Shown: positions 6,813-55,182 of the stretch, one piece after another
How positions within the stretch are numbered: the stretch's first letter is position 1
Layout: the number at the start of each line of letters is the position of its first letter
NCBI GenBank assembly: GCA_051294375.1
Contig: CM119265.1
Span: 5,002,352-5,066,351, forward strand
Source of the DNA: Paraspadella gotoi
Lineage: Eukaryota; Animalia; Chaetognatha
Reading direction: 5' to 3'
Length of the DNA: 64,000 nucleotides
Translations under genes and position numbers: made by a program
The notes under the pieces: model-generated
What the model was told of the DNA's origin: nothing
Database searches by the model: none
Seen by the model: the letters and a program-made list of their open reading frames with translations, nothing else

Positions 6813-7001
6813 TGAAGAGACAGTAATTATTGATAAGTGGTTAATGACAGAACCGTTCAATATAATGTTACAGGCGGGTTAAGCGCCCCGTCCTAGGCGG
6901 CCACCGGGCTAGAACCCCGGACCTTTGGGTTGGGAGGCGAATGACTTGCCTCTGGCACCAATGGCCACTGATGAATGGTTGGTGGATTTCAGTCCACCAT
7001 A
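6813..7001 (-). mobile_element. Family-A solo LTR, internally deleted (twister core broken)
   Basis: Minus-strand termini TATGGTGG...CTCTTCA; perfect 4-bp TSD CTAT at 6809-6812 and 7002-7005. Confidence 0.85.
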
Positions 7002-7125
7002 CTATTATATTTAACCTATTATATACTAATATATATAATATATAGCCTGAACAGTGTACAAATGGAGCTTGTTTAATAAACTATGTTTATAGAATAAATC
7101 CATAAGTTTTATAGGTTGCACTCGT

Positions 7126-7255: not shown

Positions 7256-7363
7256 AAAGTCGTTAGGACTGAATACACTGTATCGAATAATGTGTATAGA
7301 AAGCGCAAATGAGATGCGTATTATATGTCACTTTAATAGTGCTGTGGGTAATAATACAAACTA

Positions 7364-7513
7364 GACAGTCTTGATTGAAAGGTTGCTGGGTCTTATGTTA
7401 TTATCTTGTAAGAGGGAAGGAGGCATTAACCCACCATAGCCCGTTTCAAGTCAGGGGCACGAGAGCTTGTTTATTGAATGAATCCTTTTTACATTGGTTG
7501 TACCAATTTCATA
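7364..7513 (+). repeat. Family-E repeat, diverged copy, with a twister-like fold at 7402-7464
   Basis: Aligns with 9736-9913 and 38479-38667; same 3' end TTGGTTGTACCAATTTCATA. Confidence 0.75.
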
Positions 7514-8273
7514 ATATCGATTCATAATAGAATTTGAACAAAGTTATCTATTTTCTGACTCAATATAAAATATAATAATAAAATTGTTCAGCAACAAACT
7601 TTTTCATGGTGGAATCAAACTGGACCATAGAAATATTAGAATATGACCGGAGAAGCATCACAGAAATTTGGAGATTCATAATTAGGAATTCAGGACAAAC
7701 TTAGAGCTGCAAAATATGTCTTTTAATGTCAAAAATAAAAAAGGGGGTCAAAGGTAATCAAAAATACCACAAACTTTCGGAAAATATTAAAAAATTTTAA
7801 ATGAGAAGCACACGGTGAACCAATGTTTTAATAAAAACGGGCCTGTATACACTTTACAGGTACATTACATTTTATTTGGTTCCCAACCAAAATTTCAAAA
7901 TCTCAACACCCAAAATATCTAACGTACATAAATAAACTGCCTGATTATGATAGAGTAGATCCTAAATAATTAAATGAAGTCGCATTTAACCATGTCTTAC
8001 AATAAGTATAACCATTAATTCAACCTTTCTCTTACAACGAATAAATCAGAATCAGTCTCAGCGGAAAGCCATGTCTGTTGACATTAAAAATTAAAACTAA
8101 ATTTTTATAAACATTTTATGCAATCTTGAAGATCAATAAATAATAATTTCATACGAACAAAATTAGGGCTCGTCAATGGGTTCAAATGGTTAGTCCGTCA
8201 TACAAATGGCATCAAACTATACTATAATCATTATGTAGGACATAGCGGAAGGAAATTTGATTGGCGAGAGAAT

Positions 8274-11200
8274 TTATAACAGAATGTTTTTAATGGCAGC
8301 ATCGACTTCGTCGTCGTAAGAATGAACTTCCTGTGTCTCTGACGTCCAGACGTTGTCGGGCGAATCAGTCTCTCGATTATTAGCATCCACCCACGCTGAG
8401 GCCTCGGCGGTTTCGTCCAACAAAGACGTAATTTCGTCAGTCTTGAAAGAAAATTATGCAAATCATTCAGAAAACAAGAGTTCAGAATTAAATTATTTGC
8501 CTCATATAGGTAATATATTAATTCTGGTCAAAACTATTACCAGTAATTTAAGGAATAGTTTTTGTTATTAAAAAATCTTGTATAAAATAGTTTGGTATTA
8601 GGAGGATTTAGCCTGCCGTCCAATTTTCCTCTTCTTTCCTCCTCCTCCTGCCCCTATTTTGTCTAGCGATGCATTCTCTCGTTTCTACTCTTCGCGAAAT
8701 ATACCATTATTTTCCCTCTATTTCTTCACGCCTTCAATACCCCTTCAAGGTTAATTTATTTTGAAAAGATTAAAAATATAAAAATTAAAAATAACGTGTA
8801 TTTATAGACATAACAAACCTGTTCCGAAAGAAATCTATCTTCTAACGCCGGTTCCATTTGCTGCAAAATGGCATCGGCCGCAGAGCTACTTTCCATGTGA
8901 GAATCGCGGGTGGAATTTAATGTTTCGCAGAAATTTTCATCGGAACTGGGATTCGATCCGACCCATGGAGTCGATGTAGAGCTCACCACTTCATCGTTCG
9001 GCAAAGTTGGATTCTCTTCAAAGCTGAGGATAAGTTTCCGAAAAATATAAACAGGTATGGTGGATTAAAAACCACCAACCGTTCATCAGCGGCCATTGGT
9101 GCAGGAGGCAAGTCATTCGCCTCCTAACCCAAAGGACCGGGGTTCAAGCCCGGTGGTCGCCTAGCAGTGAAGAGGGACGGGGCGCTTAACCCGCCTGTAA
9201 CAAGGTGTTACAGCCTGATCCGAAGCTCAGGGACTGCTTATAACAATTATAACAATTATTACTTCACGGGGTTAAATTTCTTACGGCAATTTTTTTAAAT
9301 TTAAACTTTTAAAATTCTTTACAGTTAATATTAACTAAACTTACTTCACATGTGTAACTGTCGCGAGCTTGGTAGATTCCGCATTGTCAATTGTAACCCC
9401 TTCGTTATGCGACGAACTTTCAACATCACTATCCCACGTTCCAGAATCGGCATTGTTTTCTATACTTTTCGGAAGTTGAGAGATGTTCTCGGAGACAGGC
9501 GTACTTGCATTAAGAGAAGTGGATATGTCAAGCCCACTCGGGATTTGCGCTGAAATTAAGAATATTTAGAATCAGGATTCAGGAATTGTTAAAAAATAAA
9601 AAAACGCAATGATAATAACGACGTACCGAATGAATCGGAGACGATTATAGAGGAGGAAGCGGTTTCATTTCTAGGTATGCTCTTGTACGATTCGTCTGAA
9701 ATGTTAATGCATCAGTATTAAATAGGGTTAGGGTTAGTGAATAAACGGGACTGTGAGAGAGTCTTGATTGAAAGCTTGCAGGGACCTGCTATGTAATTAT
9801 CTTGTAAGAGTGATGGAGGCCTTAAACCACCAAAGCCTGTCCAAAGTCTGGGGCAAGATAGCTTATTTATTAAATGAATGGATAATTTTTATATTGGTTG
9901 TACCAATTTCATAGATAAGATTATTTGAGTTAAATAAATAGTATAAATAGTATACGATTCCAATAAAAAAAATTCAGACGTTATTACCTGAAATAATTTT
10001 AATTCTTTTATCGCCCGCTCCACTAGTCGCACCGAATCCACGCTTACATTTTTCTTTCTTGTAATTTTCAGGTAACGACGGTTTGTTCTGAGGAAGATGG
10101 AAGGGTAAAAACATATGTACATACGTATACGCAAAGGACAACAAACAACGAAGTTCTACTCGGGCTTTTAAACTGCAAACAATACTTTACATCGCTACAA
10201 TTCATATTATTACATATATTATTAGCATAGAATTAACAAGTTATGGTGGACTAAAATCCACCAACCGTTCATCAGCGGCCATTGGTGCCGGAGGCAAGTC
10301 ATTCGCCTCCCAACCCAAAGGTCCGGGGTTCTAGCCCGGTGGTCGTCTGGCAGTTAAGAGGGACGGGGCGCTTAACCCGCCTGTAACATGGTGTTACAGC
10401 CTGATCCGAAGCTCAGGGACTGCTTATATTGAACGGTTCTGTCATTAACACTTATCAATAATTACTGTCTCTTCAAAGCATTAATATATGATAGATATCA
10501 TCTATCTCATGTTATGTTATCACATGTTAAAGATATTGAACTTGATTTTCATTTTAAACTAACGATAATTTATGCCTGCTACGATTAATAAAACTATGTT
10601 ACATGTTAATTTTCACCTTCAGTTTTTCATCATTTTCTTCCTTTTGCAAGACAATAACATCGTCTTCCTCCAACGCCGGTTTTATTTCATCTTGTTTATC
10701 GGATTCCCTTTCTTTAACTTTTTTTCGAAGTTCTTCCCAGGCAGAACTTGATATGCTATCGTAGTAACCCACTGGTAAATGAATGGACAATTCAGGTAAA
10801 GTTATATGTATTGTACGATTATGAAAAGCGTCAGTAATTCAGTAATAATTCTTACCAGGATCCTCCTCGGCAGATTTTCTGTCTTCCATCATTTCTCTTT
10901 TTTCTTTTTCTAACCACATCCTCTGAATCATCACACTTTCAGATGCAGAGTATTCTCTCATACTACCTCGCATGGCGACATATCTGAGAAATTAAAAGTA
11001 AGGAATAAACTTTCACATAACAAGCGGCTCGATGATCAAGCGAACAAACCTAAATCGCTCCATCATGTTTTCCGCCTTCGTCAAAAGATTCTTCGAAACG
11101 GTCTCGAAAACGCGGTCAACTGAAAGAATTGTTTTAACATGAGAAAGACTACATATAATCATTTAAATGATGACAAGCTTGTCCAGTTGCTGGGAAGGGT

Positions 11201-23064: not shown

Positions 23065-26000
23065 ATGGCACAGCAAAACAGGTATATTTAATATAACTAC
23101 TCCTTGTCCGTTCGCGAGTGCCACCAAAAAAATTGTTACTATACATTAAATATTTAATAAATATAATTAATAACTATATCATTAGTTGGAGAATAACTGG
23201 ACGTTTTTTGTATATAAGTTTCATTTACTATTATATGTTTAATTTTTGATCTAACACAGTAAAATTGGCGAAAAAAGACCATTTTAAGCGTCTTCTTGAT
23301 TGCATTAAAAAAAATTTTACATCATCAGAAATCCCTATCAATGCTCTAATCATTCGTAATGTTTATAAATTGTTGTGTAATAATTTTTTATTTATTTTCC
23401 ATTAAGAAAAAAATGCTGTATTAAGCATGTTCTTGACTGTCTTGAATAATTATTTTATATCGTAAGATTTCTAAGTTAATGCTTTATTTAATTGTGTAAA
23501 TGAATTTTAATAATTTTAAGTAATTAATGAGTATTTAATTTATAATGATTTTTTTTTAAAAGATTCAATTGTTTTACTGAAGATGAAAATGGATGACCAT
23601 TAAAGAAAGGTTGTTTTACATAAGTAAATATTGAAGAGACATTAATTATTGCTGTTAGTGAAAGAACCGTTCTATGTAAGCAGTCCCGGAGCTTTGGATC
23701 AGACTGTAACACCGTGCTACAGGCGGGTTAAGCGCCCCATCCCTCTTAACTGCTAGGCGACCACCGGGCCCGAACCCCGGACCCCTGGGCTGGGAGGCGA
23801 ACGACTTGCCTCTGGCACCAATGGCCGCTGATGAACAGTTGGTGGATTTTAGTCCACCATACATCCCCCCTCCCGTAGGGAGAAGTCTGTTGGGTCTCTT
23901 CAGTGAATTGTTGTTGGTGGAAAGTTCATCATCAAGTTGCGGCTTGTCGCCTGATGTGTTGTTTGCGGAAAGTGCATTGCCAGGTTGAGGCATGTCGCCT
24001 GAAAGTGTTGTTGTTGTGTTCAGAAGTCGGGCTCACCAATGAGAGTAATTATTGTTGTGTTAGTGACAGAACTGTTCTATGTAAGCAGTCCCTGAGCTTC
24101 GGATCAGGCTGTAACACTGTGCTACAGGCGGGTTAAGCGCCCCATCCCTCTTAACTGCTAGGCGACCACCGGGCCGGACCCCTGGGCAGTGGGCTGGGAG
24201 GCGAACCACTTGCCTCCGGCAGCAATGGCCGCTGATGAACGGTTGGTGGATTTTAGTCCACCATAATATAAAATTAATTTTATGAAATTAAAATATAATA
24301 AACGTCCAGTACTTTTCTATAAAATTTTAAAAAATATTCATCCAAATACGCATTTTTTTGGTGTCGCTTGTGAACGGACATGTAGTATAAATTGCGCCAA
24401 TGGTCCTAAAAAATTAAAAATCATACCTTTTTAAAGTGCTATTCATCTTTTTGCGGGTGGCATGGGTGGAACAGTTGGGGCCATAGCAACATGCCCCTTG
24501 GAGGTGGTCAAAACTCGTCTGCAATCATCCTCAGCCAATTTCAGAGTAGTAACGTTGAATCAACAGCCCAGGTAAATTTGATAAACTAATACAAAATGTA
24601 GTGAGATTTTAAAATTAACACTCATTTTCAGCGCCTTCACTGGAGTCGGAGCTTTACAATCTCAGAAGCAAATGGGACTGATCTCGTGTATAAAGAACAT
24701 AGTCGAAGTAGAAGGTGTTCAAACGAAAGAAATATAATTTTTGTTTATATATTTCAATAGATTTGGCCAAATCCTGCATTTTTTTATATCTTAACTTGTT
24801 TCAGGTGTTCGTGCACTTTGGAAAGGCCTCGTTCCAAATCTCGTTGGTGTAGCACCGTCACGTGCAATCTACTTCTATGCTTACCACAACAGCAAATCCT
24901 TCCTAACTGGACAAATGTCGATTCCAGAGTCCTCATACGTCCACATGGCGTCTGCCTTCTGCGCAGGATTTACGGCCTGCTCTTTAACGAACCCTATATG
25001 GCTGATCAAAACGCGCGTACAGCTGGACCGCAGTCGTTCGGCTACCGGCTCAAAGTTCACCGTCCTACAGTGCATAAAACTAGTATACAAAGAATCCGGA
25101 CTGAAAGGGTTTTACAAAGGGATAACCGCTAGCTACTACGGAATATCAGAAACTGTCGTGCATTTCGTTATTTACGAAGCATTGAAAAAAATCATCTTAA
25201 ATAGAAACCAAGAACGGGAAGGGAGAAATCCAGATGAAAAAAGACTAAAGGATTATTTCATGTTCATGGTCGCCGCCGCTTGTTCCAAAACGAGCGCCTC
25301 TACTATTTGTTATCCACACGAGGTAAATTCGTTTTCCATCGCTCCTCACAACAGAACCATTGGCTAAATTTTACTTTTGCCGACCACGGTTATGGCGGCT
25401 TTTGAAAAATCATTTAAAAATCTTTATTTTAAAAAAAAATTATTTAATTACCCTAACCTTAAACCCTCTTAACCCTAAACCCTCTTAACCCTAAACTACC
25501 CCTAAATTACTCTTAACCCCCTACATTATTCTTAACCCTAACCCTTACTTAACCCTAACCCTTACTTAACCCTAGTCGGCGAAAGTAAAAGTAACCCAAA
25601 CACAATCATATTATAGTGTACATATTGTAGGTACATTCATAGTGTACCTATGATAATAAAATTGTGAATGCTTTCTTTTGTTGTATTTAGGAATTTGTTT
25701 GAGGGGAAAAAATTTATATTTTTAGTCGGATCTGCTTTCTGCAGATCCCGACTCTATAATTCATTTCCGTCGGTCGGTCCGCCCCCTCAATCTTGTCGGG
25801 CATTTATTTATATCATGTCAGAACATCGAATTATGATAAATGATGCAAAAAAAAAGATGTCCGTCCATCCGTCCGTCCCACCTTAGCAAAAAACACCAAT
25901 TACTCGTGATTGGATGGATGGATTGGAATGAAATTTTGTGTGTGGGTAGGGAAGTGTGTGATTGAGCTGAATATGAAGTTTCGATGGAATCGTCCGAGTG

Positions 26001-30520: not shown

Positions 30521-35797
<5,277 letters not shown>

Positions 35798-38062: not shown

Positions 38063-38296
38063 TATGGTGGACTAAAATCCACCAACCGTTCATCAGCGGC
38101 CATTGGTGCCGGAGGCAAGTCATTCGCCTCCCAACCCAAAGGTCCGGGGTTCTAGCCCGGTGGTCGTCTGGCAGTTAAGAGGGACGGGGCGCTTAACCCG
38201 CCTGTAACATGGTGTTACAGCCTGATCCGAAGCTCAGGGACTGCTTATATTGAACGGTTCTGTCATTAACATTTATCAATAATTATTGTTTCTTCA
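38063..38296 (+). mobile_element. Family-A solo LTR (234 bp) with intact twister fold at 38170-38245
   Basis: Perfect TSD TATT; TA...CA termini. Confidence 0.9.
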
Positions 38297-38478
38297 TATT
38301 CTTATTTTTATTATTTAATCATTTAATTATATTTACAGGTGATTATATAAATTACATAACTAGTGATGCTAGTGCGGAGTACAATAAGTATTCCCCGATC
38401 TAATACTTAAGGGAGTGGTCTTTTCATACAATTGAAACATTCTTTGAAATATTTTCCACTTCATTGATAGGGAAGCCT

Positions 38479-38667
38479 GGTACTCTGGGAGTGAATAAAC
38501 GAGACTGTGAGAGAGTCTTGATTGAAAGCTTGCAGGGACCTGCTATGTCATTATCTTGTAAGAGTGATGGAGGCCTTAAACCACCAAAGCCTGTCCAAAG
38601 TCAGGGGCAAGATAGCTTATTTATTGAATGAATGGATAATTTTTATATTGGTTGTACCAATTTCATA
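38479..38667 (+). repeat. Family-E repeat, best copy; internally deleted copy at 41322-41424, minus-strand end fragment at ~35100-35145
   Basis: Copies share a common 3' end and have variable 5' ends. Confidence 0.8.
38552..38614 (+). ncRNA. Candidate 63-nt type-P5 mini-twister ribozyme (family E)
   Basis: P5 TATCTTG/CAAGATA; P2 GT/AC; GA; T1 TGGA/TCCA; T^AA at 38577/38578; T2 AC/GT; C-AAA-G in place of P3; P4 CCTG/CAGG with loop TCCAAAGT. Confidence 0.8.
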
Positions 38668-38827
38668 ACTTTATAAATATAAAAAGTATAAATTTAGGCT
38701 ATTAAATAATGATTAAATTTATATAATATTACCTTAATTATATAAATTTAAATTAAAAATAGAATTAACAAGCAGATAGAGGGACCGACCGAAAAGTGAC
38801 TTTTAGTAATACTATAAAGGGAAAAAA

Positions 38828-40667: not shown

Positions 40668-41453
40668 GGTAGATAATTCTTAGTTTTTCCGGTTGCAAAT
40701 TTTTTTTTTTTGGTCTTTAAATAGTATAAGGCTTGTTGTATGTGAATGGAAGAAAAACGCAATAGCAGCATATTTGAAAAGTGTTTTAACCAGATTATTA
40801 TTTTTTGTCCCGAGTAGCCGAGTATCATTTAAAATAAAATACTTTAATCAGTAAAGGAACAAATCAGAAAACCTCTTCCGGATTTTCAAAGCACTTGATG
40901 ATTTTTTTCTCCAGTTTTCGGCATCGACTCTTTCGTCTTTGGCAATTCCGTCTGAAGAGATTAAGGAGGAAATGGCTTCGTTGCCATAATCGTCTTCATC
41001 AAACGACAAGAACCGAGTTCGCCTCGTAGTCGTAATTTTCCTTCCATTTTTGAAAAAAAATATTCAAAATTTAATTGCTCATTTTATTCAATCATGGAAT
41101 CGAGAATGATTTTGAATTAATTTCATTATCAATGAAACTTTGGCACTTGAAAACTTTTTTCATATTGAAATTTAATGATAATTATTTAACGCTTTGGATA
41201 TTTTAAGAGCGTTTCTCGGGAATCCTAGAGAAAAAATACGGTATGGACGTGATCCTGGGACCTCGATAACGGCGAACCAGTGACAAACTTCTGGAGACTT
41301 CACGATCCCATAAGTTAGCCAGGTACTCTGGGAGTGAATAAACAAGACTGTCCAAAGTCAGGGGCAAGATAGCTTGTTTAGTAAATGAATGGATAATTTT
41401 TATATTGGTGGTACCAATTTCATAAATCCGTTGTTGCCTAGCGTAAAAGAAAG

Positions 41454-45288: not shown

Positions 45289-55182
<9,894 letters not shown>

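Follow-up and report, generated by a model that had tools for sequence, protein, structure and literature searches.

LTR retrozymes have so far been described as mainly plant elements with hammerhead ribozymes, and metazoan retrozymes are stated to lack long terminal repeats (LTRs) as well as primer-binding sites (PBSs), polypurine tracts (PPTs) and promoters. The plant elements, described by Cervera et al. (2016; PMC4918200), have a ribozyme in each LTR, a PBS, a PPT, a 4-bp target-site duplication (TSD) and no coding sequence, and make an R-less unit-length RNA that needs a circle, with a Gypsy helper proposed. Helenus (Kojima 2024, PMC10886601) comprises short non-coding elements with a tRNA-like sequence in each LTR, a PBS, a PPT and solo LTRs; in animals the TSDs of Helenus are 4 bp long and its PBSs are Gypsy-like. 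Here we describe an element that resembles both groups in several of these respects, in a stretch of 64,000 nucleotides (nt) of the chaetognath Paraspadella gotoi (assembly GCA_051294375.1, contig CM119265.1, positions 5,002,352 to 5,066,351; hereafter the window, in whose coordinates all positions are given). We are highly confident that the element, at 24265-23632 on the minus strand, is best filed as a Helenus-type terminal-repeat retrotransposon in miniature (TRIM; TRIMp3). What is new about it, compared with known pairings of an RNA polymerase III promoter and a ribozyme, is that the ribozyme fold stands in an LTR, that it is a twister, and that a palindrome stands in the place of its helix P1.

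The element is 634 bp long, non-coding and bounded by LTRs. Its parts, all on the minus strand, are as follows.

24266-24269: 5' copy of the TSD, ATAT
24040-24265: 5' LTR, 226 bp, TA...CA
24244-24263: 5'-terminal sequence that folds into a 7-bp hairpin (counterpart 23840-23859)
24236-24243: 5' strand of a long-range stem, predicted partner 24071-24077, enclosing the tRNA-like and twister modules
24162-24232: tRNA-like module of the 5' LTR, 71 nt, with a 7-bp acceptor stem and an altered B box
24084-24159: type-P5 twister fold of the 5' LTR, 76 nt, a descriptor match
24136-24141: self-complementary hexamer (counterpart 23731-23736), predicted to form one 6-bp P1 shared by two ribozymes
23862-24039: internal region, 178 bp, C/A-rich, with a tandem duplication of 2 x 48 nt at 23904-23999
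24026-24038: PBS, complementary at 12 of 13 positions to the 3' end of tRNA-Trp-CCA as given in Kojima Fig. S2
23864-23874: PPT, followed by 2 bases and then the 3' LTR
23632-23861: 3' LTR, 230 bp
23757-23828: tRNA-like module of the 3' LTR, 72 nt, with a GGTTC box B; called tRNA-Gly(CCC) by ARAGORN at -ps85
23679-23754: second twister fold, in the 3' LTR, 76 nt, U-1 at 23730 and A+1 at 23729
23730-24134: predicted doubly cleaved 405-nt monomer or circle, its ends predicted to be held by P5 and the long-range stem
23628-23631: 3' copy of the TSD, ATAT, identical to the other

A sequence-only reading of this DNA had proposed two LTRs of about 230 bp, a PBS, a PPT, a 4-bp TSD, a 5' hairpin in each LTR and, separated by 2 nt, a tRNA-like module of about 72 nt and a 76-nt twister fold; all of these were recovered, with the 2-nt gap present in both focal LTRs. 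The two LTRs are identical at 204 of 223 aligned positions, begin with TA and end with CA instead of running TG..CA, and a single T separates the 5' LTR from the PBS. The same reading had seen no credible coding capacity. The one candidate, an open reading frame (ORF) of 112 codons, was rejected as a gene, having no Pfam match and being frameshifted in other copies by a one-base indel in the PPT. CAA-rich tracts in the internal region differ in length among copies.

The fold that follows each tRNA-like module is very probably a true twister. It parses, in order, as P5(3'), J, P2(3'), GA, T1, the hexamer, U^AA, P2(5'), GC and an 8-bp P3, then a 5-bp P4 enclosing L4, a G, and P5(5'). In the 5' LTR the general-base G lies at 24146, U-1 at 24135, A+1 at 24134 and L4 at 24103-24096; in the 3' LTR, P4 contains one mismatch and one wobble, and the T1 pair is changed on both sides to U-A. 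The predicted cut sites, 24135/24134 and 23730/23729, lie 405 nt apart, as the sequence-only reading had placed them. What that reading overlooked is that the P1 helix is absent and that a self-complementary 6-nt hexamer occupies its place. In strand order, UAA, the GA plus T1, T2, L4 size and P4 the fold matches the type-P5 twister of Rfam (RF02684); it differs in the palindrome standing for the P1 hairpin, the long P3, the 3-nt P2 strand, the A-U pair closing P4 and a score below reporting.

A BLAST search identified eight LTRs at six loci in the window, to which our conservation and covariation statistics, drawn from these related copies, apply. The five loci besides the focal one are listed here.

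45606-46184, plus strand: second two-LTR copy, TSD AAAC, with a deletion in the 5' LTR that runs through the twister
10242-10475, plus strand: solo LTR of a younger subfamily, with a complete twister core at 10349-10424
38063-38296, plus strand: solo LTR of a younger subfamily, TSD TATT
9055-9240, plus strand: 3'-truncated LTR with a complete twister core
6813-7002, minus strand: solo LTR, TSD ATAG, from which two internal stretches are deleted

A 4-bp TSD was present at all five loci that have both ends (four exact, one with a single mismatch). The twister was partly lost from the plus-strand LTR at 45606-45760 by a deletion between two short direct repeats, and the two deletions at 6813-7002 separately removed both strands of P5. 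Identity among three of the other LTR copies is 97-98.7%, whereas with the focal LTRs it is 89-90%; the focal copy is therefore an older, decayed insertion.

To recognize the fold we used a strict descriptor drawn from phage P5 consensus lines. It matched 5 of the 8 LTRs, missing the focal 3' LTR with its P4 mismatch and the two deleted copies, and found nothing in 40000 LTR shuffles or in 60 shuffles of the window. Applied to viral loci, it matched 9 of 240, among them all six Rfam-positive P5 controls.

Viral loci L172, L231, L104, L015, L061 and L065: phage type-P5 twisters above the RF02684 cut-off (6 of 9 scanned viral loci)

Two of the Rfam-passing phage loci share the GA-CGG / UCCGAAGC T1/L4 core with the element, three have a 3-bp P2, and the start of P3 agrees with the Rfam P1 consensus and with Schistosoma mansoni twisters. 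(A further viral contig, L107, holds two tandem P1-type twisters.) Among the window LTRs, none of the 8 columns for the general-base G, A+1, A+2, the L4 U and two A residues varies, and catalytic, T2 and hexamer columns together show 0 of 18 variable. The twister as a whole varies at 11 of 76 columns compared with 54 of 158 in the rest of the LTR (p=0.002, a value overstated since the copies are related), and both pseudoknots, T1 with 3 bp and T2 with 2 bp, are paired in 100% of cells. For the long-range stem, 88% of cells are paired, with covariation that is not significant.

The evidence we regard as strongest for selection on both fold and palindrome comes from comparing the focal family (family A) with a second repeat family in the window (family B). 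A covariance model built from the six phage twisters alone identified family B at 38563 (E 0.009) and 9809 (E 0.037).

38552-38614 and 9798-9860, plus strand: family B twister core, with the same architecture as family A; a decayed copy lies near 7409
38472-38668, 9736-9913, 7363-7514 and 41317-41427 (plus strand) and 35100-35149 (minus strand): family B repeats

The family B repeat is short, its 5' ends vary while its 3' end is fixed, and its P1 is a perfect 6-nt palindrome different from the family A hexamer. The families were compared by descriptor parse; MAFFT misaligned P3 and P4. Over the aligned core plus L4 there are 9 differing positions, and pairing is kept at all of them: they make up four double changes, one each in P2, T1 and T2 and one in the middle of the palindrome, and a single change of a G.U into an A-U pair. 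The sequence of P5 also differs between the families and yet remains paired. A pattern common to both matched the window 9 times and none of 100 shuffles. Beyond the window, metagenomes held no stretch matching the exact core pattern, and viral contigs none matching the A/B pattern. Relaxed patterns returned 38 loci from metagenomes and 48 from viral contigs, but a structural filter removed all 86.

Together, the shuffle controls, the core shared with Rfam-positive phage twisters and the compensatory changes in family B support the anatomy and the twister assignment given by the sequence-only reading. A chance likeness arising in a GC-rich LTR is largely refuted: in its favor are the silence of Rfam and a relaxed A/B descriptor that made 7 matches in 40 window shuffles, against which stand the zero count of the strict descriptor in its LTR shuffles and the finding of a covarying second family by an independent model. 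In tested twisters P1 is reported to be dispensable and flaws in P2 or P4 are tolerated, while flaws in the pseudoknots or catalytic residues are not. Pseudoknots and catalytic residues are intact in the element twister, and judging by its sequence we consider the ribozyme likely to be active in intact copies. We class it as a twister variant because the core is present but P1, the length of P2, the closure of P4 and the Rfam score all depart from the established type.

Family B also bears on where the ribozyme came from. At its window copies we saw no LTR, PBS or TSD features and no ORF, and translation upstream of them gave no long frame; possibly the family represents a Penelope-like element's tail. 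One family B copy follows telomere-like TTAGGG units. The two families share some downstream sequence in addition to the core, as would be expected if an LTR had captured a tRNA-headed unit, similar to a short interspersed element (SINE), together with the twister of a tail of the family B type, which was possibly Penelope-like. The captured ribozyme would then be an inactive or irrelevant passenger, and the element would move as an ordinary TRIM does, by strand transfer across about 197 nt of terminal redundancy. Kojima proposes that Helenus arose when a SINE inserted into an LTR, and most Helenus consensus LTRs examined show no ribozyme and yet have spread (PMC10886601). Copies with deleted twisters and the departures from consensus in the A-U closing pair and short P2 fit the same explanation. 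We nevertheless consider it unlikely, since every core difference between the families preserves pairing, the twister varies less than the remaining LTR, and the catalytic and palindrome columns are invariant in the window copies that have them.

The hexamer is unchanged in 8 of 8 window LTRs, and its self-duplex has a free energy of -8.3 kcal/mol, equaled or bettered by 21 of the 4096 hexamers. Modeling indicates that a domain-swapped double twister, in which two ribozymes exchange halves and the hexamers pair as one P1, would be nested and feasible. In a two-molecule fold the swapped dimer reached -50.7 kcal/mol compared with -39.0, a difference that is partly loop-penalty bookkeeping and carries little weight. 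Palindromic minimal hammerheads work as dimers, and the pairing kept between families A and B, in the palindrome too, supports a real twister that may likewise cut as a dimer. The palindrome could instead serve mainly as an RNA dimerization or packaging signal for a helper particle, cleavage being minor, by analogy with the retroviral kissing loop. The invariance and self-complementarity of the hexamer would be expected of such a signal. We judge this explanation highly improbable, however, because the palindrome lies exactly at P1 in two families, one of which shows no LTR, PBS or TSD features, and because the catalytic residues are as strictly conserved as the palindrome itself.

Upstream of each twister, the module is, from its sequence, a tRNA-derived, promoter-like segment as in Helenus, with predicted RNA polymerase III (Pol III) activity; Pol III transcription of Helenus is likewise only predicted in PMC10886601. 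ARAGORN at -ps85 identified 5 of the 8 LTRs and 18 of 1000 shuffles, and at -ps80 7 of 8 and 78 of 1000, the sole miss being the focal 5' LTR. A descriptor combining acceptor stem and boxes matched 4 of the 8 copies and 1 of 5000 shuffles. The GGTTC box B occurs in six of the eight LTRs, the focal 5' LTR not among them, and box A, for which the Helenus motif is TRGCY, YGG, carries TGG and (C/A)GG but not CY. We rejected the idea of a functional tRNA, since the fold of minimum energy does not form a cloverleaf and no tRNA was found in the element by ARAGORN at default. The sequence-only reading had pointed to the lack of a T4 run on the sense strand. The run is indeed absent, but we rejected this as evidence because 378 of 2000 dinucleotide shuffles are likewise free of T4.

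These features suggest, tentatively and with somewhat less than even confidence, that the element is a twister retrozyme, transcribed by Pol III, cleaved twice, converted to a 405-nt circle and mobilized by a Gypsy-type partner. Transcription would start at 24232, meet no internal T4 and end at a flanking T run, the first of which is at 23589. The 5' half of each ribozyme would pair with the 3' half of the other, an arrangement modeled on the minimal hammerheads of Penelope-like elements, so that the hexamers form one shared P1 and both U^A bonds are cut. The 405-nt monomer, its ends held by P5, would be ligated into a circle by host RtcB, which circularizes the monomers of animal hammerhead retrozymes. 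Reverse transcription from a tRNA-Trp primer would then run round the circle and rebuild both LTRs. A circle is invoked because a doubly cut monomer would have no terminal redundancy, the same argument that is made for plant retrozymes. A Gypsy-type integrase would trim 2 bases from each end and insert the product with a 4-bp TSD; such 2-nt end processing is an established retroviral mechanism, in line with the 2 bases that separate the LTRs from the PPT and from the PBS. Dependence on a dimer would stop a circle with one ribozyme from reopening. Given an active ribozyme, we consider the circle route reasonably probable.

Processing could also be one-sided. The 5' strand of the long-range stem at 24236-24243 sits upstream of the predicted Pol III start, so that in the transcript only the ribozyme of the 3' LTR would have the stem, and when the stem is left out the predicted probability of P5 falls in all four LTRs folded (0.92 to 0.76, 0.74 to 0.39, 0.85 to 0.59 and 0.84 to 0.10). 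A single twister, most likely the 3' one, would then cut to give the Pol III transcript its 3' end, about 100 nt of redundancy would be left, and linear strand transfer would work with no need of a circle. Many Helenus LTRs have a T run directly after the tRNA part, a feature that the focal element lacks, which fits such a role. In the 5' context, however, the probabilities of P3 and P4 are undiminished, a symmetric palindromic P1 predicts that two sites form jointly, and plant LTR retrozymes cut at both ribozymes and accumulate circles. We regard one-sided processing as improbable.

Several observations weigh against the twister retrozyme proposed above, beginning with the fold. The Rfam twister models, which the sequence-only reading had suggested as a check, did not recognize it: RF02684, RF03154 and RF03160, run on the window and on two sub-regions, gave no match for the element and only unrelated weak ones, even at E<=10, likely because the Rfam P5 model includes P1, at 8 bp, but lacks P3. 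The covariance model from six phage twisters that detected family B scores family A only at E 1-2, and the strict descriptor had been tuned with its target known. Within family A, where 1 double change was seen, covariation did not exceed that of shuffles, 235 of 500 of which reached the same level. The P2 strand is 3 nt long, with two plain pairs and a mismatch or bulge where 4 bp is the norm, and a review relays the suggestion that altered P2 length may disrupt the site. The 5-bp P4 is closed in family A by A-U, compared with G-C in family B; the review calls the G-C pair closing P4 'essentially invariant'. For the focal transcript, the swapped dimer (-182.1 kcal/mol) and two separate folds (-182.2 kcal/mol) are tied, and with pseudoknots uncounted each of these arrangements in cis is some 20 kcal/mol less favorable than the unconstrained minimum. 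Rfam matched no tRNA to the element even at E<=10, box A differs from the Helenus motif as described above, and in the common box B a T occupies the purine position. The focal copy itself is decayed, with its 5' LTR B box altered and its 3' LTR P4 mismatched. Finally, the window ORF list, inspected by eye and without a domain scan, yielded no partner element.

Sequencing contigs point to a mobile element of high copy. In 3 of 4 sequencing runs, contig joints skip 638 bases (634 + 4) across the element. In run X1 the summed contig depth was higher over the LTR than over the unique flank by a factor of about 2 x 10^4, which is not a copy number. None of the listed datasets that contain the element is recorded as RNA; in the one run that we guess to be RNA the ratio of element to flank depth was of the same order as in DNA runs and, as contigs cannot show level, carries no information on expression. 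Nor can contigs tell a circle junction from an LTR.

The focal element lies antisense within the apparent first intron (about 23083-24437) of a gene for a mitochondrial carrier similar to SLC25A33/36 (23066-25367, plus strand), whose best named homologs are 48-58% identical and come from several phyla. It is enclosed by a repeat at 23098-24387 resembling a miniature inverted-repeat transposable element, with imperfect terminal inverted repeats at 23098-23133 and 24352-24387; the left part of this repeat is also multi-copy in reads.

Among known systems, Helenus is closest in plan. PMC10886601 describes no ribozyme: the word 'twister' is absent from its text, 'ribozyme' appears solely in one of its references, and motifs of the focal element were not found in the text of its supplement, where line breaks can hide motifs. 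In many Helenus LTRs a T run comes right after the tRNA part, where the focal element has its twister fold. Two families from Synergus wasps, Helenus-2_SyJa and Helenus-2_SyUm, come nearer: like the focal element they have a ribozyme-like fold directly after the tRNA-like part, no T4 in the LTR, a 4-bp TSD and a PBS one base different, which in Helenus-2_SyJa is Trp-type. The Synergus fold reads as a hammerhead, not a twister, and likeness in sequence is not evident. By eye only, the Synergus LTRs in Data S1 contain a complete type III hammerhead, with three stems, the conserved core and complementary loops I and II; PMC10886601 does not mention it. If so, these two Synergus families would strictly qualify as LTR retrozymes of animals.

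Plant LTR retrozymes differ in using a type III hammerhead, a tRNA-Met PBS and circles of about 700 nt, in being confined to plants, and in having no tRNA-derived promoter described. An Rfam scan found no hammerhead in the focal element, which has the twister fold instead. Penelope-like elements and amphibian retrozymes, with their minimal dimeric hammerheads, provide the closest parallel for the palindrome: the helix beside the cleavage site has likewise shrunk to a short palindrome, and two copies have been proposed or shown to be necessary, although these ribozymes are of another class and their host elements are non-LTR. Pol III promoters and twisters have each been linked to mobile elements before. 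In SINE-like repeats of Schistosoma a Pol III promoter is followed by a hammerhead, the promoter lying at the 3' end of the cleaved unit, and T-variant twisters of type P1 with a weak P1 occur at the 5' end of the long interspersed element Perere-3; both, in contrast to the focal element, are non-LTR and without PBS or PPT. These comparisons draw on PMC8501958, PMC11662667, PMC5408937, PMC7761336, PMC7229834, PMC13725137, PMC8557442, PMC9695139 and PMC6765202 and on two preprints (bioRxiv 10.64898/2026.07.22.740005 and 10.1101/2023.07.11.548538). In the literature covered, which included few subscription papers and neither Repbase nor Dfam, we found no report of a twister in an LTR element, of a ribozyme in Helenus or of a dimeric twister. 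The sequence-only reading knew of no description of its whole combination. A Pol III promoter joined to a ribozyme is known from the Schistosoma repeats, so what is new is that here the ribozyme sits in an LTR and is of the twister class, with a palindrome for its P1.

The synthetic Tornado system resembles what is proposed here in that a Pol III transcript is processed by twisters to a circle, and differs in being engineered and driven by an external U6 promoter. Tornado ribozymes flank the circle and stay outside it, whereas the modeled circle of the focal element would keep one whole twister and the promoter. We can therefore picture, as a doubtful extension, a natural Tornado: an animal LTR retrozyme that carries its own Pol III promoter and whose twisters cut only as a swapped pair through the palindromic P1, giving a stable circle, and one of several Trp-primed Helenus lineages among which ribozyme classes are interchangeable, with a twister here and a hammerhead in Synergus. 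If the twister retrozyme is real, the class of LTR retrozymes would come to include animal elements, a second type of ribozyme and an internal Pol III promoter, and twisters would gain a role in LTR retrotransposition. As Rfam fails to detect the focal fold, P1-less twisters may be undercounted in genomes; a twister with a palindrome for P1 would be the counterpart, in its own class, of the double hammerhead.

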